Positions 2,214 through 61,733 of a stretch of DNA of 64,000 bases are shown piece by piece; position 1 is the stretch's first letter; each line of letters begins with the position of its first letter. The stretch is from Bacillota bacterium. Lineage in GTDB: Bacteria; Bacillota; Clostridia; Christensenellales; DTU072. A program made the position numbers and the translations under genes. The stretch is from the NCBI GenBank assembly GCA_009781445.1, contig WQYD01000002.1, forward strand, positions 17,792 through 81,791, given 5' to 3'. The notes below the pieces were generated by a model. The model was not told where the DNA came from. It saw only the letters and a list, made by a program, of their open reading frames with translations, and searched no databases.

Positions 2214-2310
2214 AATATAAAATATAAAATATGAAATATAAATTGAGGATTCTAAATCTCACTCAAGAGTAATGACGACTTACAACTTACGATTTACGAA
2301 TGTTGGAATT
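2214..2310. repeat. Modular heptamer-array intergenic repeat (two modules, reverse orientation)
   Basis: The array AAATATA/AAATATG x4 is joined to the reverse anchor GGATTCTAAATCTCA (2247-2261). A second array (ACTTACA ACTTACG ATTTACG) then ends in GTTGGAATT. Confidence 0.85.
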
Positions 2311-2502
2311 GTTTATTATAACTCTTATCTAAAGCAATTAATTTCTAATCCTAAGATAAAATAATTCATTAATTTATATTTTCGTTTTGCCATAAAGTAA
2401 AATTTTGGTAAATTTCCCGATTCAAATCTTAATATTTTAGGGCGTTTTTCATGATTTTTGCCACAATTTACCATTTTCCTTTCGTGCGCGCATATATTGC
2501 TA

Positions 2503-2531
2503 TTGCACGCACGCGTAACCTGTGATACAAT
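2503..2531 (+). promoter_or_regulatory. Candidate extended -10 promoter for the 2,433-aa surface protein gene
   Basis: TTGCAC (2503-2508), a 17-nt spacer ending in TGA, then TACAAT (2526-2531). This would give a 5' UTR of about 200 nt containing the repeat modules at 2569-2693. Confidence 0.3.
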
Positions 2532-2568
2532 AAAAGTACCGCACGGGGGGCGGATTGTTTGCCAACCC

Positions 2569-2693
2569 TGCGCGCGTAGCACGCTACGCGCAATTAAGAA
2601 TTAAGAATTAAGAATGCAGAATTAGCGCGCTATGCGCAATTAAGAATTCAGAATTCAGAATGCAGAATAATGGATTCTAAATATCATTATTAA
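2569..2693. repeat. Modular heptamer-array intergenic repeat (two AATTMAG-type arrays plus reverse anchor)
   Basis: GC hairpin GCGCGTAG-cacg-CTACGCGC, then AATTAAG x3 and AATGCAG. A second array (AATTCAG x2, AATGCAG) is fused to GGATTCTAAATATCATTATT, the reverse complement of the anchor (2672-2691). Confidence 0.85.
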
Positions 2694-2737
2694 AAAAATC
2701 CCCTATTATGCGCAGTGCGCTGAAAAAGAGGTGAACT

Positions 2738-10048: not shown

Positions 10049-10240
10049 CAGCGCACAACGCACAGCGCACAATGAAGGAATTTTTTATTTAGGTACGAAG
10101 TACAAAGTACGAATTATGGATTAGTTAACCATATAATGAGATTTAGAATCCACCATTGTGCGCTGTGCGTTGTGCGCTGTGCGCTGACATAATGGGATTT
10201 AGATTCCAACCCTGCAACCTGAATCCTGCAACCTGCAACC
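10049..10240. repeat. Modular heptamer-array intergenic repeat cluster (4 modules) between convergent genes
   Basis: Reverse GTGCGCT-type array (10049-10083), reverse TCGTACT-type array, anchor ATATAATGAGATTTAGAATCC (10131-10151) with a GTGCGCT array, then anchor CATAATGGGATTTAGATTCC (10188-10207) with a CTGCAAC array that ends at the stop codon of the next gene. Confidence 0.9.
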
Positions 10241-11185
10241 TCAATCAATCATTTCTTTCAATGCATAATATTGCCACAAAAACACTTCTTTAAGCCCTGC
10301 GGTTTGCAAGGGCTTTTTGTTATAGGCTTTATCTATGCGCTTGAAAACTGCTTTTCCGCCTCTGAAGGGAATGCGCAGGAAGGTTTTGTAAAGTGCGTAT
10401 TTAAAGGTGTGGGGTTCTAAGGTTAAAAAGCCGTCATATCCGCGGTTCTTAATTAAATCGGTAAGGATTTCTTTGTAAAATCCTTCACCAAGCCCAAGAG
10501 GTACTTCAATTTTTTCGGGCGAACAATCCTTAATATGAACATAGGCAATATAATCCTTTAGTTCGTGGTAGGCTTCAAGCGCGTTCACGCCTGATTGCAC
10601 GAAGTTAGAAGAATCGTAAGCTTGCTTAAAATTATCGCAGTTAAGCGCGTTAAGGATTTCAAGGCAACGCGCAGGGGTATCGCCGTAAATGCCCTTTTCG
10701 TTTTCGTGAAGCAGGATAATATCCGTGCCTTTAACCAAATCAAGAAATCCGCTTAATTTTTTAAGAACCACAGGAAGCATTTCTATATACGCGTTTTCGC
10801 TTAAATTCCCTGCCTCTGCTTCCTTAAAGCCGTGCATTTTTCCGCCCTCACTGCCTGTAAAAAATGAGAAAATGCGGATAAATTTGCAATCGTTATCCTT
10901 GGCAATTTTAATCATTTCGCCAAGTTTCTTTAATTGCTTTTCATAGCCCAAGTCGTCATAAACGCCGATTTTGCCGATTCCTGTGCCAAGTGAGGAAATT
11001 TTAATGCCGTTTTGCGCCAAAAGGGGCGAAACTGTTTGCTTAAATTCTTCCGCAGTAAAATCTGTGATATTTTTACCGCTTATCCCTCTTAGGCAAATAT
11101 ATTCCTCATTAAGTTCTTTAATCAGCTTAATTTGTTTATTGATATTTCCAAAAGCCTCGTCATAAAATCCTGAAATCTTAACCAT
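10241..11185 (-). CDS. Sugar phosphate isomerase/epimerase (xylose isomerase-like TIM barrel)
   Basis: The ORF reads MVKISGFYDEA ... with the start moved to the ATG at 11185, which follows GAGGGGA. The layout is typical of the AP-endonuclease-2/xylose-isomerase-like TIM barrel family (FIRIFSFF, HENE, LEPH motifs). It is the last gene of the uronate operon. Confidence 0.75.
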   Translation of the reverse strand: MVKISGFYDEAFGNINKQIKLIKELNEEYICLRGISGKNITDFTAEEFKQTVSPLLAQNGIKISSLGTGIGKIGVYDDLGYEKQLKKLGEMIKIAKDNDCKFIRIFSFFTGSEGGKMHGFKEAEAGNLSENAYIEMLPVVLKKLSGFLDLVKGTDIILLHENEKGIYGDTPARCLEILNALNCDNFKQAYDSSNFVQSGVNALEAYHELKDYIAYVHIKDCSPEKIEVPLGLGEGFYKEILTDLIKNRGYDGFLTLEPHTFKYALYKTFLRIPFRGGKAVFKRIDKAYNKKPLQTAGLKEVFLWQYYALKEMID

Positions 11186-12341
11186 TATTGTTCCCCTCAT
11201 TTTCAATTTTTTTGTTTAGTTCTGTTAAAAACAAATCTTCATTTAGCGGTAAAGAAATTTCCTCTTTAAGCCATGAGGATAGATAAACCGCATTGGATAT
11301 AGTTAATCCGTTAATGCCCTCAATGCCTTCTGCAATAAGTTTTTCGCCCTTAAGAACCGCAAGGCTGAAATTTCTAAAAATGTTAATGTGTTGCCCCACA
11401 ATGCCCAAGCGGTAAGCATTTTTAAGCGTGCCAACCTTCATTTTTATCTTTTTACTGGGGAAAAGCATGGGAATAAATGTTTTATTAGTTTCGTTAAACA
11501 AAGGTTCGGGGGTTTTAAGTTTAACAAATGTTAGCTTTTCTTTTAAAAGATTTTGTTCAATCACAAGTTTTCCGCCGTCCCCGTCAATTTCCAAGCGGTT
11601 CGTCCCTGGGCAATCATGCGTGGAAGTTACAAATACACCGCTTGCGCCGTTTTCAAATTCCGCATAAAAGGTAACATCGTTTTCCACGCTGATATTTCTG
11701 TGCATTCCCTCTTTGGCATAACCGCGGATGGTTACGGGCATACCTGCAAGCCACTGAAATAAATCTATTTGGTGGGGGCATTGGTTAATCATAACGCCAC
11801 CGCCTTCGCCTGCCCAAGTTCCGCGCCAACCGCCCTGATCATAATAGGCTTGCGGTCTGTACCAATTTGTGATTACCCAATTTATCCTCTTAATTTCGCC
11901 CATTTCACCGCTTGCAATAATGCGCTTGGCTTCTTGGTAAAGGGGATTTGTGCGTTGGTTGTACATTATTCCGAATTTAAGATTCGGGTTTTCTTTTGCA
12001 ACCTCATTAAGCTGAGTTACCGCCTTTGTGAAAACGCCTGCGGGCTTTTCAATAAGCAAATGCTTGCCCGCTTTTAGCACTTCCGCACCGATAACAGGGT
12101 GATCATAATGAGGCGTTGCAACCACAACCGCGTCCACTTCGGCGGATTTCAAAAGTTCTTTATAATCCGAAAAGGTTTTCACGCCCTTAAAACTTGCTTC
12201 TGCCGATTTTAGCTTTTCGCTATCGGTATCGCACACCGCGGAAAGCACGCCGTTTTTATCATAGCCCTTAAATAGTTTTTTTGCGTGCAAAAAACCCATT
12301 TTGCCTATGCCTATAATTCCGTATCTTACCTTATTGTTCAT
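11178..12341 (-). CDS. Gfo/Idh/MocA family oxidoreductase
   Basis: N-terminal Rossmann motif VRYGIIGIGKMG and the EKP motif (LLIEKPAG). The start is placed at the ATG at 12341, preceded by AAGGAGG; the longer ORF-track start lacks a Shine-Dalgarno. Confidence 0.85.
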   Translation of the reverse strand: MNNKVRYGIIGIGKMGFLHAKKLFKGYDKNGVLSAVCDTDSEKLKSAEASFKGVKTFSDYKELLKSAEVDAVVVATPHYDHPVIGAEVLKAGKHLLIEKPAGVFTKAVTQLNEVAKENPNLKFGIMYNQRTNPLYQEAKRIIASGEMGEIKRINWVITNWYRPQAYYDQGGWRGTWAGEGGGVMINQCPHQIDLFQWLAGMPVTIRGYAKEGMHRNISVENDVTFYAEFENGASGVFVTSTHDCPGTNRLEIDGDGGKLVIEQNLLKEKLTFVKLKTPEPLFNETNKTFIPMLFPSKKIKMKVGTLKNAYRLGIVGQHINIFRNFSLAVLKGEKLIAEGIEGINGLTISNAVYLSSWLKEEISLPLNEDLFLTELNKKIENEGNNNG

Positions 12342-14335: not shown

Positions 14336-14355
14336 AATTATTTCCCCCTGAGGCT

Positions 14356-14500
14356 TAATTCAGAATTCAGAATTCAGAATGCAGAATTATGGATTAATTA
14401 ACTAATGAGATTTAGAATCCAACCCTGCAACCTGCATCCTGCAACCTGCCCCCTCAATAATGATATTTAGATTCCATAATTCGTACTTCGTACTTCTTAC
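14356..14500. repeat. Modular heptamer-array repeat cluster (3 modules) inside the uronate operon
   Basis: Reverse AATTCAG x3 plus AATGCAG array ending TTATGGATT; anchor ACTAATGAGATTTAGAATCC (14401-14420) with a CTGCAAC-type array; anchor AATAATGATATTTAGATTCC (14456-14475) with a TCGTACT-type array that abuts the uxuA stop. Confidence 0.9.
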
Positions 14501-15526
14501 TTAGCACCCTTCCCATAACCCCAATATATAAGTCGCGCCAAGCGCCCTGTCAAAAAGTCCGTAGCCGAACTTTCCTGTTTCGCCCCAAATCATTCTGCCG
14601 TGATCGGGGCGGATATATCCGTTAAATCCGCTTTGCTTTAATTCTTTCACTATTTCTGCCATATTTAGGCTTCCGCACGCGCTTGGGTGCGCGGTTTCGG
14701 TAAAATCCTTTTCATTGATAAGTTTAATGTTTCTTAAATGCGCAAAATGGATTCTTCCTTTTGCAATGCGGATAATTTCGCTTAAATCATTATCGCGCCC
14801 TGCGCCCAACGAACCTGCGCAAAAGGTTATGCCGTTATTAGTGCAATCCACCGCGGATAAAATCCTCTTTATAGAGGCTTTTCCTGTAACAATGCGGGGC
14901 AAGCCGAAAATTCCCCAAGGGGGATCGTCTGGGTGAATTGCCATATTTATGCCAACCTCTTTTGCCACGGGGATTACCTCACGCAGGAAGTTTTCAAGGT
15001 TTTTAAAAAGCCTTTCTTCGCTAATATCCGCATATTTATTTAAAAGTTCTTTTAATTGTTCCTTTGTGTAAGATTCGTCCCACCCCGGAAGTGAAAGCCC
15101 GCTTGTTAAAGGGTTCATATTAAGCACGGTTTCGTGATTATACGCAAGCGCGTGCGAACCGTCCTCAAGAGGCGAAGAAAGTTCGCTTCTAAGCCAATCA
15201 AACACAGGCATAAAGTTATAGCAAACGCATTTAATGCCAAATTTTGCAAGCCTTCTTAAATTTTCCTTATAATTCTCAATATATTGTTTTGCAGTCGCAA
15301 GCCCAAGTTTAATATCCTCATGCACAGGCACGCTTTCAATAACCTCGCAGGAAAGCCCCTTGTTGTGGCAGGCGGTAACAAGCCTTTTAATGCTTTCTTC
15401 AGCCCACACCGTGCCAACAGGCGTGTCATAAACGGCGGTAACCACGCCGTGAATGCAAGGTATTTGGCGAATCATATCAAGGGTAACCTTATCCGATTCG
15501 CCGTACCACCTGAATGTCATTTTCAT
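14501..15526 (-). CDS. uxuA: Mannonate dehydratase UxuA
   Basis: MKMTFRWYGESD N-terminus and overall UxuA-like sequence. The ATGA start/stop overlap with uxaC suggests translational coupling. Confidence 0.9.
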   Translation of the reverse strand: MKMTFRWYGESDKVTLDMIRQIPCIHGVVTAVYDTPVGTVWAEESIKRLVTACHNKGLSCEVIESVPVHEDIKLGLATAKQYIENYKENLRRLAKFGIKCVCYNFMPVFDWLRSELSSPLEDGSHALAYNHETVLNMNPLTSGLSLPGWDESYTKEQLKELLNKYADISEERLFKNLENFLREVIPVAKEVGINMAIHPDDPPWGIFGLPRIVTGKASIKRILSAVDCTNNGITFCAGSLGAGRDNDLSEIIRIAKGRIHFAHLRNIKLINEKDFTETAHPSACGSLNMAEIVKELKQSGFNGYIRPDHGRMIWGETGKFGYGLFDRALGATYILGLWEGC

Positions 15527-18547: not shown

Positions 18548-18586
18548 AATCCATAATTCTGCATTCTGAATTCTTAATTCTGAATT
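18548..18586. repeat. Heptamer-array module (AATCC + ATAATT + CTGCATT CTGAATT CTTAATT CTGAATT)
   Basis: Same array family as at 14356, 22251 and 2641. It lies in the eda/galE divergent region, directly upstream of the galE Shine-Dalgarno. Confidence 0.85.
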
Positions 18587-18600
18587 AAAAAGGTGGTTAA

Positions 18601-19599
18601 ATGAATAGCATTTTAGTTACAGGCGCAAGCGGTTATATCGCTACTCACACAATCGTTGCTTTGCAAGAGGCGGGTTACAGCATTGTGGGGATTGATAATT
18701 TTTCTAACAGCACAATTGAAAGCATTGTGAACACAGAAAAGATTACAGGCAAGCCCATAAAGTTCTATGAGGGCAATGTTTGCGACACTTTGGTTTTAGA
18801 AAAGATTTTTACCGAAAATAAAATTTACGCGGTTATTCATTTCGCAGGGCTTAAGGCGGTGGGTGAAAGCTGTCAGATTCCGCTTAAATATTATCAAAAT
18901 AACTTGGGTTCAACTTTTTCGCTAATTGAAACCATGATTAAGTTTAATGTGAAAAGGCTTGTGTTCAGTTCAAGCGCAACCGTGTACGGTTCACCCGAAA
19001 AGTTGCCGATTACCGAAGATTCCCCCCTTTATACCACCAATCCTTACGGTGCAACTAAGCTAATGATTGAAAACATATTAAAAGATATTTATTCTGCCGA
19101 TAAAAGTTTTAATATCGCGCTACTTAGGTATTTTAACCCTGTGGGGGCGCACAAAAGCGGACTAATTGGCGAAAATCCGCGCGGAATCCCTAATAATTTA
19201 ATGCCTTTCGTGGCGCAAGTGGCAAGCGGAAGGCTTGAAAAGTTAAGAGTTTTCGGCGGTGATTATGATACGAAGGACGGCACAGGCGTAAGAGATTACA
19301 TTCATGTGGTGGATCTTGCTTTGGGGCATGTTTCCGCGCTTAAAAATATTGAAAAATTCGGCGCAGACGCGATTAACCTCGGCACAGGCACGGGATATAG
19401 CGTGCTTGATATGGTTAAAGCGTTTGAAAAGGCAAGCGGTGTAAAAATTCCTTATGAAATCACTGCAAGGCGCGCAGGTGATATAGCCTCTTGCTATGCC
19501 TCACCCCAAAAGGCAAAAGAACTACTTGGTTGGGAAGCGAAACTAACGCTTGACGATATGTGCGCAGACGCTTGGAACTATACGAACAGAACGCAATAA
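18601..19599 (+). CDS. galE: UDP-glucose 4-epimerase GalE
   Basis: ILVTGASGYIATH nucleotide-binding motif, YGATKLMIE (YxxxK) and DYIHVVDLALGH. Shine-Dalgarno AAAGGTGG. Confidence 0.9.
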   Translation: MNSILVTGASGYIATHTIVALQEAGYSIVGIDNFSNSTIESIVNTEKITGKPIKFYEGNVCDTLVLEKIFTENKIYAVIHFAGLKAVGESCQIPLKYYQNNLGSTFSLIETMIKFNVKRLVFSSSATVYGSPEKLPITEDSPLYTTNPYGATKLMIENILKDIYSADKSFNIALLRYFNPVGAHKSGLIGENPRGIPNNLMPFVAQVASGRLEKLRVFGGDYDTKDGTGVRDYIHVVDLALGHVSALKNIEKFGADAINLGTGTGYSVLDMVKAFEKASGVKIPYEITARRAGDIASCYASPQKAKELLGWEAKLTLDDMCADAWNYTNRTQ

Positions 19600-22212: not shown

Positions 22213-22220
22213 GAGAATTT

Positions 22221-22340
22221 TCAGCGCACAGCGCACAGCGCACAATGAAGGATTAATTCAGAATTAAGAATTCAGAATGCAGAATTATGGATTAATTAAC
22301 TAATGAGATTTAGAATCCACCATTGTGCGCTGTGCGCTGA
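22221..22340. repeat. Modular heptamer-array repeat cluster in the divergent promoter region
   Basis: Reverse GTGCGCT x3 array (22221-22247), reverse CTGAATT-type array, linker TTAATTAAC, and anchor ACTAATGAGATTTAGAATCC (22299-22318) with a GTGCGCT x2 array (22321-22340) complementary to the first array. Confidence 0.9.
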
Positions 22341-22367
22341 AAACCCTGAAGTTGTGCCAAATAGTGC

Positions 22368-22397
22368 CGTATTCGGTTGCTATAGCAACCGAATACG
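22368..22397. other. Perfect 13-bp stem-loop (CGTATTCGGTTGC-tata-GCAACCGAATACG) of unknown role
   Basis: Seen directly and followed by CACTTTT. It lies between the divergent LRR and giant-operon promoters. Confidence 0.5.
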
Positions 22398-22504: not shown

Positions 22505-22571
22505 ATAAGCGTGCGCTACGGGGGCGCACCTTAAAATGTTTGCGAATATAGCGGATTCGCAGGAGAAATTA

Positions 22572-25500
22572 ATGAGAAACACAAAAAAACTTTTCAAATA
22601 CATAGCCTTGGTTTTGGCTCTGGTTGCGGTACTCAGCGTTATCGCAGGTTGCTCAAGGCTTGACGATGCGCGAAGCGACCCTGCGGGGAATATTCAGCAA
22701 ACCCCCACCGATCCCCCTTCTACCGACACGATTAATGTTGTAAGACCTACCGCCGCGCGCAACGCTATGAACGCGGCACTTCGCAACAGAACGAACAAAT
22801 ACGCCCCGAAGAACAATTTGCCCGAATGGTTCGTGATAGATTTGCAAATGGACTTTAGGATAGACAGATACGGCACCCCCTTAGTGCAAACCCCCACCTC
22901 AAGTTCGTCTATCAGGGTTATTTTGCAGGCGAATGTACATATTTTAAACAATAACTTCAGCGAACTTAAGCTTGAAATTTATAACAGAATTCCCACCACA
23001 ACGCAAACTTTTGCCCTTTATTATCTTGAAAAATCAGCCTACATTGAATTAGGCGCGCCCCAAGACAGGCAAAATTTTTACATAGAAGAAATTAACTTAT
23101 CCGAAGCCCTCGGCATGGTGGGCTTTATGCTTGCGGATATGGGCATAGATCCTGCTCAAATCTTTGCCGCAATGATGATTAGCACGCAAGCCACCTTAGT
23201 TCCCACGGGAATAGCGTTCTTGGATGAAGGTTTAATGGCGATTGTCGCAACGCAGATGTTTGATGCGGGGCCGAACAGTGCGCGCGAAAGAATCCGCAAT
23301 TCAGGCGGAACGGAAACGCGTGATTATGGGCTAAGGCTTACTCTTGCAGGGCTGCTTAACATGGTTGACGGCATGGATTTACTGGGCATTAAGATTGACC
23401 TTAAAAATATTTGGGGTATAATGGGCTTGCCGAATCTTGATCCGCTTTTAAATGAATTTATAGGCACGGACATAGGCGAAATCCTTAGCTTCTTGCGAAA
23501 TTCAGAGGACGCCTATATGTGGATGCTAACAAGCATGGAGGACGATGTTCCGAGGACGGAATGGAATGCGTCCGCGGGGCAACACCAAATCGTGTACGAC
23601 GGCGCAGGGCAAGCGGTTACGCACAAAGCCCCTGTGTACACGGGAATTGCGATAAACTTACCCGGCAGGAAAAGCCCCACTTATCCTAAGGGGCAATTTG
23701 ACATTGATATTTACGCGCCCTCGGTAAGGGCGTCCATGGCGGATAGAAAGACGCAAATTTGGTTTCCTGACAGGCTTACCGAAAGCGCAAAAGGCACTTC
23801 GTACCAAAAAGCAGGGCTTGGAAACCTTGAAATTGAGGGCGAATTCAGCATTCAAAGCGATCCTAACGGTGTAATCCGTTTAAATTCCGTACTCGGAACT
23901 ATGATTGATTTGGGCGGAATAGGCGAAATTCCGCTATATTTCCCCAAAGAAGGTGCGGTTTACACCTTCACAATGAATTTAAAACTCGCGCTTGATTTCT
24001 TTAATCCAAGCGGTACGCGCGCGGAGGCAATTATTTATTTTAACGATACGGATAACCCTCAGAACAAGCAACCCTTCCTTGCGCTGTCTATTGTTAACAA
24101 TAGGCTAATGATTGATTGTAGCAAACTTATAGATTTCGCAACTTACAAACAGCAAGCCCCCAACTTCGGGCAGGGGCAGGTTCCCCCTATTCCGCCGTGG
24201 CAGATTTTGCCTAACATTTCCATGGAATTTAGCATAAATTCCCTGCTTGACGGGCTTTTAGGCGGGCTTTCAAACATTTTAGATCCTAACTTTATCCGCT
24301 TGCCTATTGCACCGCAGAACAGCGCACCGCAGAACAATGCGGAAGAGGAATCGGGCGGGCTTGATATAATGCTTCTTATAAGCATTTTGGCAGGGCATTA
24401 CCAAGTGTATCCGCAAAGCGGAACTGAGAATTTAGTGCGCGTGTTTGTGGATAACAAGGGCATTAACGACATTCTAAGAATGCTTGGCATGGATGTGGGC
24501 AGTGGCGGTGTCGGCTTTTCTGAAATTGAATTTTCCATGTTTTCTAACGATCCGCTCAATACGATTGTTTTGCGCGCAGGCGTAACGGAAGAAGTTGATG
24601 TGGTTTTAAGGCTTACAAAATTCGGCTGGTTCAAACGCCCTGTGTTTGAAAACGCTTACATAAGCGATCTTGCGTTTGTGAACCTTGATGACGAACGGAT
24701 TCAGTTTATTAACCTTGAGGCTTCGGGATATTTCCAATTCGGAATCAATGAAACCAGTAGCGGAATCGTGCTTGATTTAGACGATATCGTGGGGGATATT
24801 CTTAGCAATGTAATGTTCTCACTCGGCGTAACCGAAAGTGCGGATTTCACGATAAGATATGATCTTAAAGCAGGAATTAACTTTAGAAACGCGCTTGAAT
24901 CGGGCTTATCCATAACTTTTTATATAAGCGATTTGCCCTTCCTCACCATTTATTTTGAAGCATCCTCGGATACGCTGTTCCTTGATTTTTCAAACCTCTC
25001 AAATTTGAAAACAGAGATAACCGCGCTTGCTTCCATAGGCACGATTGATAACATTAAGATAACAGGCGTGGGCATAAGTTCAATCTTAAGTTCGCTACCG
25101 CTTATAGGGGACGGCGGTTCAAACGCACCCAAAAATGCACCGATTCACCTATCTTCCACCCCTCAAGGCGTGGCGGTGGACGCACTTCTTAACTTAATTC
25201 TTGGCGCAAATCCCCTTTACTTCGCGCTTGCGAACGCAGATGCCGAAAATGAACCTGACGGCGGATTTGATTTAATGAGTTTGCTAATGGATGTTTTAGG
25301 GCAAGGCATAACGGTTGAGATCAATGACGAAATTAAATCCCTAATTATCCGTGCAGACGAAGATTTGCTTACAATCCTCGTTGCCATGCTTGGCGCAACG
25401 GCGAATATGCCCAAAATTGCATTTGCAATGAAACTTCAGCTTATCGGCGTGGGCGATCTTGACGATAACGGCTATATAAGCGTACACTTCAAGCTGTTTG

Positions 25501-28076
25501 ATGACGGCGCGGAAACGGCAATGCTTTTTGCGGATATCGTGCTGATTCAAACGGTAAGAATCCCTATTTCACGCACAGCCCCCGTTTATTTCCCCGGTTC
25601 GTTCACCCCTGGGGAATTTAAAGAACTTGACGATTATCTTGCTTCGCTTGTCCTTGCTTTCCACATTGAAGGCAACATTTCGGTGCTTGCGCCCGATAAT
25701 GATATTTACGAATCCGAACTTGTAAACGGAATGCTTGCAGGGATACTTCCCATGCTTGCAGTACGCTTCGGAATAGACGGCTTTTCAATAAACTTGCAGT
25801 ACGAACTGAAAATGATTGCGCATATTTCCGATGTTTTGGCAATTTTTAACGCAATTTCAGGCAGTGGCGAAGTTCCCGAACATTTAAATACCGAACTTTC
25901 AATCACCCTTTCGGATTTGGATTACGGCGGACGCGTGTTCGGGCTTTATATAATAGATAACAATGTTTATTTAGAACTTGATTACTTCGGTGTTGAAAAT
26001 GTTTCACTCAAAGGGGCAGGTTTATTCTTAAACGAACTGTTTAAAATGTTTGCCTCAGACGAAAGTGAACCTATAAATAAAGACGATCCCGAAAACCGTG
26101 CAATGTACCCCATTCCCTCTAACGGCGCAAGGTTTGGCACAGGCGCGGACGCGCTTCAAGGCATTGTGGTTCTGCTTTCGCCCGACAGAGTTGCTTTACA
26201 TATCGGCAAATCCGCAATTTCCGCCGTTCTCGCGCTAATGTTTGAGGATGGTTTACCCCTTGAAATCCACGGCATAAATCTTGCCGTTGATGTTTCAAGA
26301 GGCATAGCGTTAAGCATAAGCGTGGGCATTGAGGTTTTTGAAATCTCGCTTTCGCTTAGCGATTTATTTGTTTTATTTGAAAAAGATAAGCACATTGCAG
26401 GTAGCAATTATCCTGTGATAATGCTTCCTAACGATAGATTCCCCGTCCCAAGCGGGGACGGCGGAATGCCCGAATATGTGTACATTAAGTTTGAAGGCGA
26501 AATGTTTATAAGGGCAGATCAAACCGAATACGGTGACGATAGGATAATTATAAACACAAATATAAACCTTACCCCCGCCGTTAAAGCAATTTTCGGTGAG
26601 GATATTGATCTCATTGCATACCTTGAAATGCTTGGTGTGGTTGAGGGCAGAATTGCCATTGTTATTGAAGCCTCTTTAAATTTAACGCACTTTGTGAGAA
26701 GCGCGGCGCGGATTGAACTTTATTCGGGGGATACCACCCAAAATAACCGCATTTTAAGCGCGCAGTACAGAGGGCTTGAGAGGATTGATCCCGAAACAGG
26801 CGAACCAAGGGTTTACGGCGATTTATTTATAGATACAGACGCATTTGAACTCGGCAAACTTTGGGTGCAGGATGTGGGCGCGCTTATAAATGTGTTCCTT
26901 GGGCTTGAGGACAGGGATTTTGAATGGGGCGACATTGTGGGCGGTAACCCTTCCGCACCGCGCTATTCCCCTCTTTCTTCGGACGAAGTTATGGCTAAAA
27001 ATTACCTTGATATAATGTTTATCAGGGGCGGAATTTCGTTCGCGCTTACAAAAGGCTTGCTAACAGGCTTAATGCTAAGCCTCGGCGGATTTGATTTAAC
27101 CGAATTCTTTGAAAATGTGGGCGGACGCGATGAGGTTGTGTACGGCGAAATTCTAATTAGCCCCATAACCCTTGCACTCGGTGTTCACCTTGGCGGAATT
27201 GAAGCGGGGCTTAACCTCGGCAGGCCTGAATTAGTGTTTGAAAGGCTTGTGCCGATGCCCAGCGATATAGACGAATATACCCTGCTTTTAAGCCTTGAAA
27301 GGCTAAGCATAACCCTTAGCGGTGCTATTGATTTTGCGATTATTTCTGATCCTAACGGCACATATTTTGATCACATTGTGTTTGAAATAAAAGAAATGCT
27401 TGCTTTGTCAGGCACTTTTGATCAAGCACTGCTTGACAGTTTGCTGAACTTTGGCATAATCCTTCAAATTATTGCAGATTCATTCGGTGATACGCGCTTT
27501 GGCGGTGTTCTTAATTACGAAATAGAAGTTCATGTTAACTTGCTTGATATAATAGACGATTTATATCTTGCATTAAGGCTTTTTGTGTTAGACGGTGATT
27601 TCCGTACAGACATTTTGGGGCTTTATATAATGCCCGATCCCCGTGAAGGCGCAGGGCTTACCCTGCTTCTTGACGCGGAATTCCTTGGGATTGAAAAAAT
27701 CCGTGTTAACGATGTGTTCGGCTTTATTTCCGCATTCACAGGGGAAGACGGTTTAGAAAACGAACCAAACGGCACTGCCCCCAAGAACAGCGGTTTACCG
27801 CAACTGCCAAGAAACGCTTCCGCACCTGAAATTCTATCCGCCAATGTGCTGATAAGAATAGCCTCAGATCCTGCCCAAATCGCGCTTAACAAAAACGCGC
27901 CTATTCTCATAAGCATAACCGAAAGCGCGTTTTCCGCGTTGCTTGAATTTATGGATATGGGAAGCATTTTAAACCTGCTTGGGGTGCATAAGCCGTGGGC
28001 AGAAGTTTCGCTTGCAAGCGGTGATAGCCTGCTTTCCTTGGGCTTGGGCTTAAAGATTTGCTTTCGCTTACGGTAA
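22572..28076 (+). CDS. Giant modular lipoprotein, part 1 (signal peptide plus modules 1-6); probably the N-terminal portion of a protein of about 8,560 aa
   Basis: The ATG at 22572 follows AGGAGA. The signal reads MRNTKKLFKYIALVLALVAVLSVIAGCS (lipobox IAGC). It contains six copies of the unnamed module of about 300 aa (hydrophobic-Y/F-hydrophobic-D core at 23040, 24108, 24978, 25968, 26826, 27669). It stops at 28074-28076 in the middle of a module. Confidence 0.75.
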   Translation: MRNTKKLFKYIALVLALVAVLSVIAGCSRLDDARSDPAGNIQQTPTDPPSTDTINVVRPTAARNAMNAALRNRTNKYAPKNNLPEWFVIDLQMDFRIDRYGTPLVQTPTSSSSIRVILQANVHILNNNFSELKLEIYNRIPTTTQTFALYYLEKSAYIELGAPQDRQNFYIEEINLSEALGMVGFMLADMGIDPAQIFAAMMISTQATLVPTGIAFLDEGLMAIVATQMFDAGPNSARERIRNSGGTETRDYGLRLTLAGLLNMVDGMDLLGIKIDLKNIWGIMGLPNLDPLLNEFIGTDIGEILSFLRNSEDAYMWMLTSMEDDVPRTEWNASAGQHQIVYDGAGQAVTHKAPVYTGIAINLPGRKSPTYPKGQFDIDIYAPSVRASMADRKTQIWFPDRLTESAKGTSYQKAGLGNLEIEGEFSIQSDPNGVIRLNSVLGTMIDLGGIGEIPLYFPKEGAVYTFTMNLKLALDFFNPSGTRAEAIIYFNDTDNPQNKQPFLALSIVNNRLMIDCSKLIDFATYKQQAPNFGQGQVPPIPPWQILPNISMEFSINSLLDGLLGGLSNILDPNFIRLPIAPQNSAPQNNAEEESGGLDIMLLISILAGHYQVYPQSGTENLVRVFVDNKGINDILRMLGMDVGSGGVGFSEIEFSMFSNDPLNTIVLRAGVTEEVDVVLRLTKFGWFKRPVFENAYISDLAFVNLDDERIQFINLEASGYFQFGINETSSGIVLDLDDIVGDILSNVMFSLGVTESADFTIRYDLKAGINFRNALESGLSITFYISDLPFLTIYFEASSDTLFLDFSNLSNLKTEITALASIGTIDNIKITGVGISSILSSLPLIGDGGSNAPKNAPIHLSSTPQGVAVDALLNLILGANPLYFALANADAENEPDGGFDLMSLLMDVLGQGITVEINDEIKSLIIRADEDLLTILVAMLGATANMPKIAFAMKLQLIGVGDLDDNGYISVHFKLFDDGAETAMLFADIVLIQTVRIPISRTAPVYFPGSFTPGEFKELDDYLASLVLAFHIEGNISVLAPDNDIYESELVNGMLAGILPMLAVRFGIDGFSINLQYELKMIAHISDVLAIFNAISGSGEVPEHLNTELSITLSDLDYGGRVFGLYIIDNNVYLELDYFGVENVSLKGAGLFLNELFKMFASDESEPINKDDPENRAMYPIPSNGARFGTGADALQGIVVLLSPDRVALHIGKSAISAVLALMFEDGLPLEIHGINLAVDVSRGIALSISVGIEVFEISLSLSDLFVLFEKDKHIAGSNYPVIMLPNDRFPVPSGDGGMPEYVYIKFEGEMFIRADQTEYGDDRIIINTNINLTPAVKAIFGEDIDLIAYLEMLGVVEGRIAIVIEASLNLTHFVRSAARIELYSGDTTQNNRILSAQYRGLERIDPETGEPRVYGDLFIDTDAFELGKLWVQDVGALINVFLGLEDRDFEWGDIVGGNPSAPRYSPLSSDEVMAKNYLDIMFIRGGISFALTKGLLTGLMLSLGGFDLTEFFENVGGRDEVVYGEILISPITLALGVHLGGIEAGLNLGRPELVFERLVPMPSDIDEYTLLLSLERLSITLSGAIDFAIISDPNGTYFDHIVFEIKEMLALSGTFDQALLDSLLNFGIILQIIADSFGDTRFGGVLNYEIEVHVNLLDIIDDLYLALRLFVLDGDFRTDILGLYIMPDPREGAGLTLLLDAEFLGIEKIRVNDVFGFISAFTGEDGLENEPNGTAPKNSGLPQLPRNASAPEILSANVLIRIASDPAQIALNKNAPILISITESAFSALLEFMDMGSILNLLGVHKPWAEVSLASGDSLLSLGLGLKICFRLR

Positions 28077-53336: not shown

Positions 53337-53520
53337 AATTAAGATTAAAATGCGTAACGCATGAAGATATGAAGACGCTACGCTTGTGAAGACGGCTTCG
53401 CCTTATGAAGTGCAGGCAAGCCTGCATGGTGGATTATTATATATAAATATTCCGCAATTCGTACTTCGTACCTTGTACTTCGTACTTCTAAATAATGATA
53501 TTTAGAATCCGCCACTATAC
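53337..53520. repeat. Composite intergenic repeat: short hairpin/ATGAAG units, TCGTACT-type array, anchor plus ATACCCT array
   Basis: TGCGTaACGCA and TGCAGGcaagCCTGCA hairpins are interleaved with (T)ATGAAG(A) x4. Then ATTCC GCAAT TCGTACT TCGTACC TTGTACT TCGTACT, followed by anchor AATAATGATATTTAGAATCC (53491-53510) and ATACCCT ATACCCC. Confidence 0.8.
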
Positions 53521-53632
53521 CCTATACCCCAAAAAAACAAATTCACTCGGTAGCATAAATTCGGTGGCGGAAATGTATTCGCCCGCTTCAACTGTTTTAC
53601 ATTAAAAACTTAGAAATTTTTTAGCCAACCTA

Positions 53633-53667: not shown

Positions 53668-54015
53668 ATGAAACGACTTTTTGTTAGCACAAGCATATTT
53701 GATAAGGATTGGGAATTTCTTAACCTTAGGGATAAAGAACTTAAATTGCTACAAGAAACTATATTGTACGACCCAAAGCAAGCGCCAGTAATTCAAAAAA
53801 CGGGCGGGCTTCGCAAAATGCGCTTTCCGCTTCCAAACAGGGGCAAGAGCGGAAGCATTAGGGTGATTTATGCAGACTTTGAAGAATTTGAGATTACTTT
53901 CCTAATTACGGTTTATGCTAAAAACGAAATGGACAATATTAGTGAAGAGCAAAGGGTAAAACTAAAACGCTTGTATGACGAACTAAAGAATGTTTTAAAA
54001 GGGGGCAGAAAATGA
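53668..54015 (+). CDS. Type II toxin, RelE/HigB-like (toxin-first gene order)
   Basis: 115-aa ORF with GGLRKMRFPLPNRGKSGSIRVIYADF ... ITFLITVYAKNEMDNISEEQ, the pattern of RelE-superfamily (PF06296-like) toxins. It overlaps the antitoxin by 4 nt. Confidence 0.75.
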   Translation: MKRLFVSTSIFDKDWEFLNLRDKELKLLQETILYDPKQAPVIQKTGGLRKMRFPLPNRGKSGSIRVIYADFEEFEITFLITVYAKNEMDNISEEQRVKLKRLYDELKNVLKGGRK

Positions 54016-54314
54016 ACATAGGCGATAAAATACAAAAAGGGCTTGAAGAAGCAATAGAATTTGCAAAAGGCAACACAAAATTAAAAACAACAACGCGCGC
54101 AATACCAGATGTTAGGTGTTTTTCTGCTACCGAAGTAAAAGAACTTAGGGAACATTTGGGTTACACGCAATTTGCTTTTGCAAAAATGCTTGGTGTTTCA
54201 AATAAAACCGTTGAAGCATGGGAAAGCGGGAAAAACACACCAAGCGGTTCGTCAAGCCGTTTATTAGAATTGTGGCAAAACAGCCCCGATATGATGATTA
54301 GGGCTTTCGCATAA
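54012..54314 (+). CDS. XRE-family HTH antitoxin (HigA/MqsA-C-terminal-like)
   Basis: 100-aa ORF. LREHLGYTQFAFAKMLGVSNKTVEAWESGKNTPSGSSSRLL is a classic XRE helix-turn-helix. It is translationally coupled to the toxin. Confidence 0.75.
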   Translation: MNIGDKIQKGLEEAIEFAKGNTKLKTTTRAIPDVRCFSATEVKELREHLGYTQFAFAKMLGVSNKTVEAWESGKNTPSGSSSRLLELWQNSPDMMIRAFA

Positions 54315-54480
54315 AGCGCATTAAATGCGTTGCAGTTAAATTCACTTCGTGAGTGAAATTTGCCTTACGGCAAGTGTAGGATAAAATCCCAAATAGAACC
54401 CCAAAGGGGTGAAATGTGCATAACCCCGTGCAAGCGGTAGCGTAGCACGGGGCAAGACAAAGAAACACGGATAGAAACAC

Positions 54481-54519
54481 AAAACCCCCCTTTCTGCCGT
54501 TGGCAGAAAGGGGGGTTTT
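54481..54519. terminator. Strong bidirectional rho-independent terminator
   Basis: AAAACCCCCCTTTCTGCC-gt-TGGCAGAAAGGGGGGTTTT is an 18-bp perfect stem with T-runs on both strands. Confidence 0.75.
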
Positions 54520-54553
54520 GATTTGTGTGGGTTAGCTGTGCAAATCGCGCCTG

Positions 54554-54700
54554 CCGTGGGTTTCACCCACGGTTATGCATATCCTGCCCGCTACGGGGCA
54601 GTTACGGATATATAGTATGTTGGCTTGCTTTCCGCTTTGATGTGCCGTGGGTTGCACCCACGGTTATGCACATTAAGCCCCCATGGGGCTTTATGCGATT
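54554..54700. repeat. Hairpin-type intergenic repeats (GC hairpin plus TTATGCA-like tail), 4 units
   Basis: CCGTGGGTttcACCCACGGTTATGCATAT (54554-54582) and CCGTGGGTtgcACCCACGGTTATGCACAT (54645-54673) differ at 2 nt. Each is followed by a second hairpin (CTGCCCgctacgGGGCAG TTACGGAT; AAGCCCCcatGGGGCTT TATGCGATT). Confidence 0.8.
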
Positions 54701-54704
54701 AACT

Positions 54705-54890
54705 AATAATGAGATTTAGAATCCGCCATGTTTCTCGTTTATCGTTTCATGTTTCACTTTTCATTTGGGGCTTAATGCGGATAAATCAATAATGAGATTT
54801 AGAATCCACCCCTGCAACCCGAATCCTGCAACCTGAATCCTCAATAATGATATTTAGAATCCACCATTGTGCGCTGTGCATTGTGCGCTG
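54705..54890. repeat. Modular heptamer-array repeat cluster (3 anchor-plus-array modules, direct orientation)
   Basis: Anchors are at 54705-54724 (GTTTCAT-type array), 54787-54807 (CTGCAAC-type array) and 54843-54862 (GTGCGCT-type array). Confidence 0.9.
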
Positions 54891-54894
54891 TGAG

Positions 54895-55449
54895 TTATTT
54901 AATGCTTTGCATTAAATAAACAAATTCACTTGGCAACATAAACGGCACAGCAGAAAGATAAGTATCTACTTCAGTTGTTTTTTGGAAAAGGCTTTCAAAT
55001 AGCTTTAAATCTGTGTTAAAAATTATTGTGTTTGCTTTGGGGATTGCGTACGCTTCCAAGAGTTCCACGATTTCTTTAATAATCTTGCCTTTATATAAGG
55101 AAAGAGAATCTTCCTTTAAAAAGTTTATTACCGTGGTTTCCGAAAAGGGTTCTTCGCCGTTAAGCAGTGTAACGCTTGCCGTATTATCCTTTATTGTAAC
55201 TTCTATATTCGCGTAGTCAAAATCCTGCTTGGGAAAGGTTTTAAAAAGAATTTCATAATTAAGTTTATTGCAAAAATCCTTATCGCAGGCAAGGCGGATT
55301 CCGCTTTCGGTTTCTTTATCTGTTAAAAACTTTTTATCAAGACGCGAAATCGGCAGGGCAGGGCAGATAATTTTGCACCTTCCGCAAACCCCCGTGCCAC
55401 CGCAGGGCAGGGCTATACCCTTATTTAAAATATCTTCTTTAAGTTTCAT
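54895..55449 (-). CDS. 2Fe-2S ferredoxin-like domain protein
   Basis: 184-aa ORF with a Cys motif PCGGTGVCGRCKI ... IRLACD resembling plant-type/RACo-type [2Fe-2S] domains. The C-terminal part is unassigned. Confidence 0.55.
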   Translation of the reverse strand: MKLKEDILNKGIALPCGGTGVCGRCKIICPALPISRLDKKFLTDKETESGIRLACDKDFCNKLNYEILFKTFPKQDFDYANIEVTIKDNTASVTLLNGEEPFSETTVINFLKEDSLSLYKGKIIKEIVELLEAYAIPKANTIIFNTDLKLFESLFQKTTEVDTYLSAVPFMLPSEFVYLMQSIK

Positions 55450-58709: not shown

Positions 58710-60791
58710 ATGAACAATAATAAAAGAGCAGTTTTTGTTGTGGCACTGATAGTGGTAGCTGTTATACTGCTTGTGATAATAATCCCGTCCACAAGGGCTA
58801 AAGTTGATGTTATTTCTTACAGCGAAGTAATTGAAAAACTTGATCCTGCTTACACCCCCACCGCCGAAGATAAAAACGGCGATATTATTAACGATAGGAT
58901 TATAGGAATATACTTCACTTCAAGCTACGAAATCAATGTGCTTTATGCAAAAGACATAGCAAATCTTGACGAATTTAAAAAAGGCAATAAGCCCTCTGCC
59001 AAAAGCATGGTTACCTATAGGGATAACCTTATGCGCACGGTGGAAAATCTTTACGAGGGTGATTTAGAAAATCTTCCCTTTATCCGCTTGAATGATCCCA
59101 ATGCTAACAGCTTTTTAAGCTATCTTTTCCCTGTGTTAACGCTTGTGATTTTGCTTGTGTTGGGTGTGGTGATATTCATGTCTATCCGTGGCGGAAAGGG
59201 CGGAAACACCGCAATGTCTTTCGGAAAATCTAAAGCAAGAGTGGCTTCACAAATCAAGATAAGGTTTAACGATGTGGCAGGCGCGGAAGAAGAAAAGGAA
59301 GAACTTAAAGAAATCGTGGAATTTCTAAAAACCCCAAAAAAGTTCCGACAAGTGGGCGCACGGATACCCAAAGGCGTACTTTTGGTGGGAAGCCCCGGCA
59401 CAGGCAAGACGCTTTTTGCCAAAGCAGTGGCAGGTGAAGCCAATGTTCCTTTCTTCTCAATAAGCGGTTCAGACTTCGTGGAAATGTTCGTGGGTGTTGG
59501 CGCATCAAGGGTGCGCGATTTGTTCGCCCAAGCAAAAAGAAACCAACCTTGCATAGTGTTTATAGACGAAATTGACGCAGTGGGCAGAAAGCGCGGTGCA
59601 GGGCTTGGCGGTGGCAATGACGAACGCGAACAAACGCTTAATCAGCTACTTGTGCAAATGGACGGATTTGACGAAAATGAAAGCATAGTTATCATGGCGG
59701 CAACCAACCGCGCCGATGTTTTAGATCCCGCACTTCTTCGCCCCGGCAGGTTTGACAGGCAGATTTATGTGAATATGCCCGATGTGGCAGGCAGAGAAGG
59801 AATCTTCCGCGTTCACAGCAAAAATAAGCCTTTGTCGGCGGATATTGATTTTAAAAACCTTGCAAGAATCACCACTGGTTTCAGCGGTGCGGATATAGAA
59901 AACCTTTTAAACGAAGCTGCGATTCTTGCCGCGAGGGACGATAGGCAAATTATCCTAATGAAGGATATAACCGAAGGTATCAATAAGGTTATCGCAGGAC
60001 CTCAAAAGCGTTCGCGCGTTATAACGGAAAGGGACAGACGGCTAACAGCCTATCATGAAGCTGGGCATGCAATTGTGGCAAGATGCTTAAAATATTGTGA
60101 CGATGTGCAGGAAGTTTCCATAATTCCGCGCGGAATGGCAGGCGGTTACACCCTTTCACGCCCCAAAACAGACGATAATTATATGACTAAAAACCGCTTA
60201 AATGACGAAATTGCCATGATGCTTGGCGGTAGGGCGGCGGAAGAGATTATTATTCAGGATATATCCACAGGCGCGTCCTCAGATTTAAAGCGTTCCACAG
60301 GAATCGCAAGGCAAATGGTTGTGGAATGGGGTATGAGTGATGAGCTTCCCAATATCTTCTTCGGCGGTGAGCAGGAAGTATTTATAGGAAGAGATTATCA
60401 AACCCAAGCACTTTACAGCGAAAGCGTGGCTTCTGTAATTGATAGGGAAATGCGCAAGATAATTGATTTAAATTACGGCAGAGCCATTAGAATCCTTAAA
60501 GAAAAGGTGGAAATCATGCACAGCCTTGTAAAGCTGTTATTTGCCCACGAAACCATTTACGGTGACGAACTTGATCTAATCTTAGAAGGAAAATCCGTTA
60601 GCGAAGTTACCGAATATATAGGCGAAAAGAAGCGCGAACAAGAGCGCATAGCCGAAGAAAGGCGCAAAGCAATAGAGCTTGCAGAACAAGCCTTGCGTGA
60701 AGCCAAAGCACAAGCGGAACTTCAAGCCACGCTTAAGAATATGCAGGTAGCAGTGAAGCAGGAAAGCCAAGACGAAGAAACTAAAAACTAA
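58710..60791 (+). CDS. ftsH: ATP-dependent zinc metalloprotease FtsH
   Basis: Walker A GSPGTGKT, Walker [12 protein letters not shown] region, and HEAGHA zinc motif. The start is set at the ATG at 58710 after GAGGAAG. Confidence 0.95.
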
Positions 60792-61050
60792 TCAGCGCAC
60801 AGCGCACAACGCACAATGAAGGAATTATTTTTCAGCGCACAACGCACAGCGCACAGCGCACAATGAAGGATCAATTAACTAATAATGAGATTTAGAATCC
60901 ACCCCTGTATCCTGCACCCTGCAACCTGCATCCTCAATAATGATATTTAGAATCCACCATTGTGCGCTGTGCGCTGTGCGTTGTGCGCTGACATATAATG
61001 AGATTTAGAATCCATAATTTGTATTTCATATTTCATATTTTATATTTTCT
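60792..61050. repeat. Largest modular heptamer-array repeat cluster (2 reverse arrays plus 3 anchor-and-array modules)
   Basis: Reverse GTGCGCT-type arrays are at 60792-60826 and 60832-60870. Anchors are at 60881-60900 (CTGCAAC type), 60936-60955 (GTGCGCT type) and 60994-61013 (CATATTT type). Confidence 0.9.
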
Positions 61051-61117
61051 CTTAACTTTCAGTAATAATCCGTCCACTTACGAAATAAGATATAATAAAC
61101 ATTCCGGAGGTTAATTT

Positions 61118-61623: not shown

Positions 61624-61668
61624 AAAATTCCGCCCTGCAAAAATGATTGCAGGGCGGAATTTTTTAAT
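61624..61668 (+). terminator. Rho-independent terminator
   Basis: AAAATTCCGCCCTGCA-aaaatgat-TGCAGGGCGGAATTTT followed by TTTAATT. Confidence 0.8.
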
Positions 61669-61692
61669 TCAGAATTCAGAATTATGAATTAA
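61665..61692. repeat. Short heptamer-array module (AATTCAG x2 ending TTATGAATT)
   Basis: Same array family as at 14356 and 2641, in reverse orientation and without a full anchor. Confidence 0.6.
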
Positions 61693-61705
61693 TTCTAAAT
61701 TCATT

Positions 61706-61733
61706 TTGAAATTAACTTCCGATAGTTTATAAT
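61706..61733 (+). promoter_or_regulatory. Candidate hisS promoter TTGAAA-16 nt-TATAAT, 8 nt upstream of the ATG
   Basis: TTGAAA is at 61706-61711 and TATAAT at 61728-61733. No Shine-Dalgarno precedes the ATG at 61742. Confidence 0.45.

Follow-up and report, generated by a model that had tools for sequence, protein, structure and literature searches.

The spacer downstream of ftsH in a 64,000-nt stretch of contig WQYD01000002.1 from a Bacillota bacterium (hereafter the window) holds two arrays of tandem heptamers that are exact reverse complements of each other, which raises the question of how the two arms came to match down to a shared variant heptamer. The first-pass annotation of the window had described three such pairs, and had taken their co-variation as a sign of selection on pairing or else of local inverted duplication or gene conversion. 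Our analysis favours, with moderate confidence, a reading in which the arm pairs belong, as the members that form hairpins, to a lineage-specific family of mosaic repeats in intergenic DNA, similar to repetitive extragenic palindromes (REPs), bacterial interspersed mosaic elements (BIMEs) and REP doublets forming hairpins (REPINs), and in which the match between arms goes back to shared descent, to slippage and possibly to conversion.

The ftsH hairpin and three further pairs

The two arms of the ftsH pair, 60832-60865 and 60958-60991, are complementary at 34 of 34 positions, and with their flanks they extend to 48 nt at 92% (60824-60871 / 60952-60999). The loop of 92 nt, annotated as containing a complete module, harbors a connector (60885-60901), a CCTGCAx array (60902-60938) and a second connector (60940-60956). 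The left arm comprises four units of the AGCGCAC type; counted from the outside, the second is the variant AACGCAC. The locus is made up as follows.

60792-60818, plus strand: extra left-type array (TCAGCGCAC AGCGCAC AACGCAC AATG)
60819-60831, plus strand: short (S) connector AAGGAATTATTTT, separating the pair of left-type arrays
60832-60865, plus strand: left arm, TCAGCGCAC AACGCAC AGCGCAC AGCGCAC AATG
60866-60957, plus strand: loop, a copy of a dispersed block of about 90 nt
60958-60991, plus strand: right arm, CATT GTGCGCT GTGCGCT GTGCGTT GTGCGCT GA
60998-61053, plus strand: third connector (60998-61014), then a TATTTCA array, where the mosaic ends

The extra left-type array begins one base past the ftsH stop codon (60789-60791) and offers an alternative pairing with the right arm (31 nt at 87%, 24 nt at 92%). 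The GGAATTATTTT portion of the S connector is also found before the left arm of a pair between nifU and nrdR, outside the window.

The second pair, at 10 kb, is complementary at 26 of 26 positions (10049-10074 / 10154-10179) and extends to 31 nt at 94%. Its left arm begins 9 nt past the stop codon of a gene encoding 2,433 amino acids (aa), and its right arm carries one outer unit more than the left. The variant GTGCGTT is matched in both arms here and at ftsH, in agreement with the first-pass annotation; the position given for it at 10 kb, second of three, applies to the left arm only, the right arm having it second of four.

10049-10074, plus strand: left arm, three units, variant in the middle
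10075-10153, plus strand: loop, with an S connector, a GTACGAA array (10091-10113) and the full connector TTATGGATTAGTTAACCATATAATGAGATTTAGAATCCAC
10154-10186, plus strand: right arm, four units, variant second from the loop
10192-10246, plus strand: connector variant and unpaired CTGCAAC array, which abuts the 3' end of a convergent gene (10241-11206, minus strand)

The third pair, at 22 kb, is located between divergent gene starts. Its arms, previously credited with at least 19 bp, pair at 20 of 20 positions in the outer register (22218-22237 / 22324-22343) and over 26 nt at 92% in the inner register.

22218-22247, plus strand: left arm, three AGCGCAC units without the variant
22255-22319, plus strand: loop, with an AATTCAG/AATTAAG array and the full connector TTATGGATTAATTAACTAATGAGATTTAGAATCCA
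22320-22343, plus strand: right arm, two GTGCGCT units and GAAAA

A fourth AGCGCAC pair is found 2.2 kb past the window end, between nifU and nrdR (L051 5380-5512). In the inner register it has two mismatches and two wobbles, and its predicted fold still reaches -61.7 kcal/mol.

Separately from these pairs, a perfect 30-nt palindrome without a spacer (CGTATTCGGTTGCTA / TAGCAACCGAATACG, 22368-22397) lies 25 nt past the 22-kb hairpin, upstream of a gene for a giant surface protein.

A family of connectors and heptamer arrays

The connector AATAATGAGATTTAGAATCCA is present in 14 copies in the window, where 0.22 are expected. A survey of 80.5 kb, consisting of the window and two flanks recovered from contigs of the European Nucleotide Archive (ENA), revealed about 40 distinct heptamer arrays (49 overlapping rows), against a mean of 2.1 in shuffled sequence. 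All of them except one lie between open reading frames (ORFs), and many span the distance from a stop codon to the ribosome-binding site of the next gene. The arrays comprise 3-5 units (21-35 nt) and belong to at least 10 heptamer types, including AGCGCAC, CCTGCAA, TTCGTAC, AATTCAG/AATTAAG, TATTTCA, TGTTTCA, CTATACC, ACGACTT, CCTATGC and GAGAGAC.

These parts are assembled according to a simple grammar. A module is a conserved connector of about 20-32 nt with 3-5 copies of one heptamer, and it occurs singly, in tandem and in both orientations. Right-handed modules have the order connector-TCCA-xx-array, as in TCCACCATT-(GTGCGCT)n, TCCACC-(CCTGCAA)n and TCCATAA-(TTCGTAC)n, and left-handed modules the order array-xxGGAWT, as in (AGCGCAC)n-AATGAAGGA and (AATTCAG)n-AATTATGGATT; the full connector TGGATTAATTAACTAATGAGATTTAGAATCCA often joins the two kinds. 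The elements are found past stop codons, within operons, between convergent genes and between divergent starts, and the orientation of the connector to transcription varies, being sense at certain loci and antisense at the rest. Larger blocks are also dispersed. The ftsH loop and right arm align with blocks at 54773-54905, 14386-14480 and L058 3590-3725, and the composite of about 90 nt formed by a connector, a CCTGCAx array and a connector recurs at 54773-54865, 14386-14480 and L058 3590-3680. The copy at 54773-54865 is followed by the same TGTGCGC array, but has no left arm.

Two other identities were considered for these repeats. A CRISPR array was rejected, as heptamer arrays of a few recurring types, and not unique spacers, lie between the connectors; no cas gene was found among the Pfam-scanned genes or the precomputed Pfam hits of about 86 kb. 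A promoter composed of the TATAAT-like core of the connector and a TTG in the array was not supported by a scan, the spacing being 7, 14 or 21 nt instead of 16-18 nt.

Pairing and co-variation of the arms

About one third of the arrays have a complementary partner, and these are of GC-rich types. In the AGCGCAC/GTGCGCT family 8 of 10 arrays are paired, forming the four pairs described above, and all four GAGAGAC/CGTCTCT arrays form two further pairs, which are the two copies of a 150-nt element on either side of ecfA2 (see below); these six pairs have spacers of 59-92 nt and stems of 20-34 bp. The nine AATTCAG/AATTAAG arrays surveyed include one loose pair with unmatched variants, and none of the CCTGCAA and TTCGTAC arrays is paired. 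The first-pass annotation had named, as evidence against its proposal, a genome-wide predominance of arrays without a partner together with uncompensated arm differences. Judged in this way the outcome is mixed: arrays without a partner predominate overall (about 26 of 40), and pairing is the rule within the AGCGCAC family.

Two inverted arrays of one heptamer family are complementary almost automatically, so that only the placement of the variant units, in three to four pairs, is informative. The variant is GTGCGTT at ftsH and at 10 kb, and GTGCATT (AATGCAC in the opposite arm) at nifU-nrdR. Counted from the loop outwards, its positions in the two arms are as follows.

ftsH pair: third and third, a match
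10-kb pair: second and second, a match
nifU-nrdR pair: second and third, a mismatch
22-kb pair: variant in neither arm, a trivial match

When the eight arms were re-paired at random, at least three perfect pairs out of four were obtained with P=0.018; re-pairing of the six variant-bearing arms alone gave at least two perfect pairs out of three with P=0.067. The matched variants at two loci are real, while the argument that they reflect selection on pairing is left with marginal statistics and a fourth pair that is out of register. The data suggest that partner arms share descent or are homogenised, and they are no evidence of compensatory selection; evidence for selection keeping the arms matched is weak. 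Local inverted duplication or gene conversion, the alternative already offered in the annotation, accounts for the data no less well than selection on pairing.

The variant units themselves resemble slippage products spanning an array junction, with CATT/CGTT-GTGCGCT-GTG blocks at a period of 14 or 21. Examples are CATTGTGCGCTGTG, which repeats with period 14 at 100% identity at 54865-54892, and a period of 14 at 60833-60862.

Predicted folds and transcript ends

Folding of the paired regions gave long, very stable stems at all three window loci. The predicted RNA energies are -94 kcal/mol at ftsH (z -10.6), -81.3 kcal/mol at 10 kb (z -8.4) and -53.7 kcal/mol at 22 kb (z -7.1), and none of 200 dinucleotide shuffles per locus was equally stable. 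As single-stranded DNA (ssDNA) the ftsH locus folds with -53.9 kcal/mol (z -11.7), a stability again reached by no shuffle.

A classical terminator had been reported as missing at the two loci that follow a gene, and a simple scan of the plus strand agrees, with no stem plus T-run after ftsH or the 2,433-aa gene. The hairpins themselves do not have the features of an intrinsic (Rho-independent) terminator, since they have loops of 59-92 nt and lack a T-run past the right arm. Rfam gave no match at the gathering score in the window, and the only match in L051 is the RNase P RNA. REPs in 3' untranslated regions (UTRs) of Escherichia coli act as stabilisers and partial terminators (bioRxiv 10.64898/2026.03.23.713779), and by analogy a role at RNA 3' ends, as stabiliser or attenuator, is plausible at the ftsH and 10-kb loci. 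Such a role cannot be the whole explanation, given the 22-kb pair between divergent starts and the many unpaired arrays; the same repeat family occupies operon-internal, convergent and divergent spacers alike.

Origin of the matched arms

We infer several processes behind the pairs. Replication slippage would change the length of arrays, modules would duplicate in tandem, and composite blocks would be copied to further intergenic sites, perhaps by transposition like that of REPINs or of MITEs (miniature inverted-repeat transposable elements) or by recombination. Where two AGCGCAC modules, one left-type (array-AATGAAGGA) and one right-type (TCCACCATT-array), came to flank other modules, a stem of 20-34 bp would form in ssDNA or in a transcript crossing the element. 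The match between arms, variant heptamer included, would stem mainly from common descent within the locus, and the arms may in addition be homogenised by templated repair in the folded strand; occasionally, slippage would displace a variant from its register, the nifU-nrdR pair being an example. When transcribed together with ftsH or with the 2,433-aa gene, the stems probably act as REP-like 3' structures that block exonucleases or attenuate read-through, an effect that would be a by-product or secondary use and not the cause of the arm match.

Several observations weigh against this reading. No transposase, REP-associated tyrosine transposase (RAYT) or recombinase gene is present among the Pfam hits of the approximately 86 kb examined, no flanking target-site duplication is visible at the four hairpin loci, and no empty site was seen, so that mobility is deduced only from the dispersed near-identical copies; the arm ends are nevertheless conserved (TCAGCGCAC...GTGCGCTGA). 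The sample for co-variation is tiny, with four AGCGCAC-family pairs of which one is a counter-example. Variant units are rarer in paired arms than in unpaired arrays (6/44 versus 34/74, P=0.0003), as selection for pairing would also predict, although this contrast is confounded with heptamer type and gives P=0.34 within the GTGCGCT family. Finally, the junctions have a fixed handedness, which a symmetric element inserted at random does not predict. Over its whole length the nifU-nrdR element can be aligned with the 10-kb element in reverse complement, its loop being inverted, and yet the 2x2 internal mismatch beside the arms has one plus-strand handedness at every locus. The motif CACAATGAAGG occurs five times on the plus strand and never on the minus strand, and CCACCATTGTG six times and never, respectively (window 10068, 22241, 60812, 60859 and 10150, 22317, 54861, 60954; L051 5406 and 5479); together they leave all hairpins with an identical AA/AC internal mismatch. 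In other modules, the TTATGGATT junction is found four times on each strand.

The handedness could possibly result from loop inversion by exchange within the mismatch, from strand-specific insertion or repair, or from a strand-specific constraint. A bolder proposal, which we regard as distinctly unlikely, takes the repeats not for selfish DNA in decay but for the output of a strand-specific system, still active, that would write or copy array modules into the intergenic DNA of this Clostridia lineage with hairpins as its replicating or recombining unit, and would do so without a RAYT. Hints of it are the handedness, the narrow range of 3-5 units, the junction ATTCCACC shared with the nearest relative, whose heptamers differ, and a near-identical connector beside an array hairpin in a metagenome-assembled genome (MAG) labelled deltaproteobacterial. 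Such a system, if real, would provide a handle on the origin of intergenic heptamer repeats, including the short tandemly repeated repetitive (STRR) sequences of cyanobacteria and the repeats of Xanthomonas and Beggiatoaceae.

Selection could also act on the stems as RNA structures, be they 3'-end stabilisers, sites of processing by RNase III or another enzyme, or attenuators independent of a U-tract, which would adjust how strongly neighbouring genes are expressed relative to one another and keep their pairing by compensatory evolution. The great stability of the stems, the start of two pairs 1-9 nt past stop codons that lack a canonical terminator, the variant units matched at two loci, the greater homogeneity of paired arms and the E. 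coli precedent cited above all agree with this view. We nonetheless consider it unlikely, given the 22-kb pair between divergent starts, the mis-registered nifU-nrdR pair, the marginal support from co-variation, the lack of a U-tract after the stems and of any Rfam match, and the right arm that stands with its loop block, but without a left arm, at 54773-54895. That the arrays are instead binding sites of a sequence-specific nucleic-acid-binding protein, such as a regulator or a nucleoid protein, and that the inverted pairs are incidental, is quite improbable: at least 10 unrelated heptamer types would need many binders, the arrays run in both orientations relative to genes, the nearest relative has different heptamers in their place, and no candidate protein was identified. 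This view is nourished by the narrow array length (3-5 units, 21-35 nt), by the frequent contact of arrays with ribosome-binding sites or stop codons, and by what has been proposed along similar lines for the TAACTGA repeats (PMC4679880) and the heptamers of Nostoc (bioRxiv 10.1101/2022.06.06.494920).

The inverse relation of the nifU-nrdR and 10-kb loops, in which the junction dinucleotides stay with the arms, would fit if the arms were recombination sites of small invertible segments, that is inverton-like switches, and the ENA assembly breaks at the ftsH hairpin, where one contig ends at 60957 and the next begins at 60851. But the two orientations occur at different loci and not at one, the loops measure only 59-92 nt and have no promoter-like site, and no invertase or recombinase gene lies nearby, which makes such switches very improbable. 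Assembly artefacts in repeat-rich metagenome data are hardly credible as the source of the perfect inverted repeats. Although ENA contigs end within repeats and the copy number differs between assemblies at one locus, the window and the independent ENA assembly ERZ27264051 agree base for base over the 10-kb hairpin, the 22-kb hairpin and both ftsH hairpin halves, the same architecture recurs at many loci, and a one-G difference at 28040 implies that the ENA assembly is not a mere copy.

Relation to known repeats

To our knowledge, intergenic heptamer repeats have been known for decades from cyanobacteria, Xanthomonas and giant sulfur bacteria, with no accepted origin or function. The cyanobacterial STRRs comprise many different types of tandem heptamers in intergenic DNA, and conserved elements of 21-27 nt are reportedly nested among the arrays or form mosaics with them, with small elements inside one array. 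They differ from the present family in phylum and sequence, and here the connector joins arrays of different heptamers. The pneumococcal BOX element is a Firmicute repeat built of modules of 45-59 nt, the middle one being tandemly variable, and has a stable predicted fold, and Rickettsia palindromic elements (RPEs) are palindromic repeats tolerated in frame within genes. The elements described here have no relationship in sequence or unit size to either, but those in the ecfA1-ecfA2 reading frame (see below) likewise appear to be tolerated in frame.

The closest precedent for the paired arms is found in Xanthomonas, where each genome contains 70-75 convergent pairs of GGGAATC heptamer arrays that may form stem-loops or cruciforms (Rehm et al. 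2015, PMC4692102); the same study describes GGGGAYT heptamer repeats in Nostoc. Like the present pairs, those of Xanthomonas are intergenic tandem heptamers of few units in which two arrays of the same heptamer lie convergent and close together, and close relatives differ in the lengths but retain the single or paired type (PMC4692102). Xanthomonas, however, uses one G-rich, quadruplex-prone heptamer, whereas at least 10 types occur here, none of them G-quadruplex-prone and none with a G3+ tract; here, moreover, a conserved connector builds mosaics, in a different phylum (a Clostridia-like Firmicute). The Beggiatoaceae TAACTGA repeats form intergenic arrays of 2-6 units that often abut start codons and are patchily distributed across distant phyla (MacGregor 2015, PMC4679880). 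They consist of a single heptamer, nearly always forward and upstream of genes, with one inverted repeat in 170 sets (PMC4679880). The TAACTGA repeats and the STRRs thus have the heptamer theme in common with the present family, but not its pairing or its connector grammar.

Among mechanistic models, REPINs come closest. REP doublets that form hairpins are what replicates, and their conservation exceeds that of singlets (Bertels and Rainey 2011, PMC3116915). Like REPs, BIMEs and REPINs, the present elements are extragenic and dense, alternate in orientation, form long hairpins from inverted doublets and occur in tandem clusters, and they share with REPINs the combination of inverted units, a short spacer and a long hairpin. 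They differ in two respects: a REP unit is a short imperfect palindrome with a conserved head, whereas the heptamer arms are not palindromic and pair only with their partner in folds, and REPs are tied to a RAYT transposase, which is absent here from the Pfam hits of about 86 kb. What a specialist would not expect is the grammar of one connector with many heptamers, together with the fixed handedness of the junctions.

The family brings an unusually clear grammar, with many heptamers, one connector, pairing of the GC-rich types and fast change in copy number, to an unrelated, uncultured, spore-forming Firmicute. The lineage is suited to asking whether heptamer repeats spread as REPIN-like hairpin units or tune mRNA 3' ends. 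On the practical side, such repeats break metagenome assemblies and can mislead gene callers, by which three of the repeats were read through here.

Turnover, assemblies and relatives

The window encodes SpoIIE and a protein with a SpoIIIAH domain, has a GC content of about 43% and is followed just downstream by a class A RNase P RNA. Its organism is also present in metagenome 3300010049 of the Joint Genome Institute (JGI), and comparison of two assemblies at the locus upstream of SecB reveals repeat turnover: the JGI sequence (L019) has at least four tandem modules of connector and CCTGCAx array, against two in ENA ERZ27264051 (L058 3590-3735). The JGI modules repeat with a period of 48 or 55, and one of them differs by one heptamer unit from the ENA sequence.

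A scan of metagenomes for the connector yielded, among the matches listed, at least two true relatives, the JGI 3300010049 contigs L019 and L034. Two scans of viral contigs gave no matches, and a blastn search against plasmids and phages found nothing relevant, the sole match being a 33-nt TGTGCGC-like run in a Comamonas plasmid. An 18-mer connector scan of GTDB representative contigs returned single matches only, chance ones without arrays, except for L009, from which it follows that the species of the window is missing from those representatives.

In L009, a 202-kb contig from a MAG labelled uncultured delta proteobacterium, an imperfect AATTCAG-like array hairpin (7596-7720, -38 kcal/mol) adjoins an exact reverse-complement connector, TGGATTCTAAATATCATT. 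By eye, it presumably lies at the 3' end of a murB-like minus-strand gene. This copy could represent horizontal spread, deep conservation or a mis-binned contig.

Among homologues of HisS the nearest is 72% identical, and the next, from MAGs named Clostridia bacterium, are 65-67% identical. Heptamer arrays are also present between genes of the relative with 72% identity (L055), with units quite unlike those of the window, while the relative with 67% identity has no heptamer arrays. In L055, arrays of AGTGGCT, ATTATTC, GTGGACG, TAAACTG and TATTAAA flank small hairpins (797-829, 4816-4895, 8736-8803). One of these arrays is preceded by ATTCCACC, a junction common to the window; another has GAAGGAAA as its end, at a distance of 4 nt from the start codon of the downstream serine hydroxymethyltransferase (SHMT) gene, where the left-junction motif GAAGGA appears to double as a putative Shine-Dalgarno sequence.

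The indel at 28040 affects a gene for a surface protein of 8,573 aa. The window has GGG (28037-28051) where the ENA contig L012 has GGGG (12117-12131), and the gene is split in the window into ORFs 22536-28076 and 28058-48256. The difference comes either from an error in sequencing or from phase variation of the homopolymer. For the leucine-rich repeat (LRR) protein, a search for paralogues gave a nearest match of 32% identity.

Further mosaics and neighbouring features

The remaining elements of the window combine the same parts in other orders.

2211-2725, minus strand: two mosaics with minus-strand connectors (2246-2262, 2671-2687) and AAATATA, ACGACTT and AATTAAG/AATTCAG arrays
14354-14502, plus strand: mosaic inside an operon, with uxuA on one side and a short-chain dehydrogenase gene on the other (both genes minus strand)
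18548-18590, minus strand: single AATTCAG-type module, reversed, just upstream of the ribosome-binding site of gene 18601-19599
53451-53533, plus strand: TTCGTAC array, connector and CTATACC array
54700-54895, plus strand: mosaic without a left arm, with connector-TGTTTCA, connector-CCTGCAA and connector-TGTGCGC arrays
61661-61715, plus strand: AATTCAG array directly after a classical terminator hairpin (61632-61665), upstream of hisS

In the mosaic at 14354-14502, an AATTCAG array, the full connector, a CCTGCAA array, a connector and a TTCGTAC array follow one another with no inverted pair. The TGTGCGC array in 54700-54895 is an orphan of the right-arm type with variants GTGCATT and GTGAGTT. 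The region 2211-2725 contains a degenerate GCGCAGTGCGCTGA remnant beside the ribosome-binding site of the 2,433-aa gene, and within it lies a 46-nt tandem duplication of two copies at 91% identity (2577-2668), in which GC-rich near-palindromes (GCGCGTAGCACGCTACGCGC / TAGCGCGCTATGCGC) alternate with AATTAAG/AATTCAG arrays.

Upstream of the window, two copies of a 150-nt AGAGACG/CGTCTCT hairpin element flank ecfA2, 1.8 kb apart, with about 98% identity and a sharp right boundary. A single ORF (L054 1-2028), which lies 7.5 to 5.5 kb upstream of where the window starts, takes in EcfA1, then an AATTCAG/CCTATGC element, then EcfA2 and a 150-nt hairpin element. It has no stop codon between ecfA1 and ecfA2, and the ENA gene caller reports one product of 675 aa; the CCTATGC array supplies in-frame ATGs immediately before the EcfA2 N-terminus.

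A second, unrelated repeat family (TGCCGTGGGTTTCACCCACGGTTATGCA... and GGTTATGCAYATTTCACCCC...GGGGT) adjoins mosaics at 54330-54700 of the window, at L051 6530-6735, and at L034 480-499 and 4090-4176, and includes a perfect 19-bp hairpin at 54480-54520. Between this family and the mosaics at 53451-53533 and 54700-54895 lie a gene for a RelE-family toxin and one for a helix-turn-helix (HTH) antitoxin (53670-54315), a stretch that may be a small inserted island.

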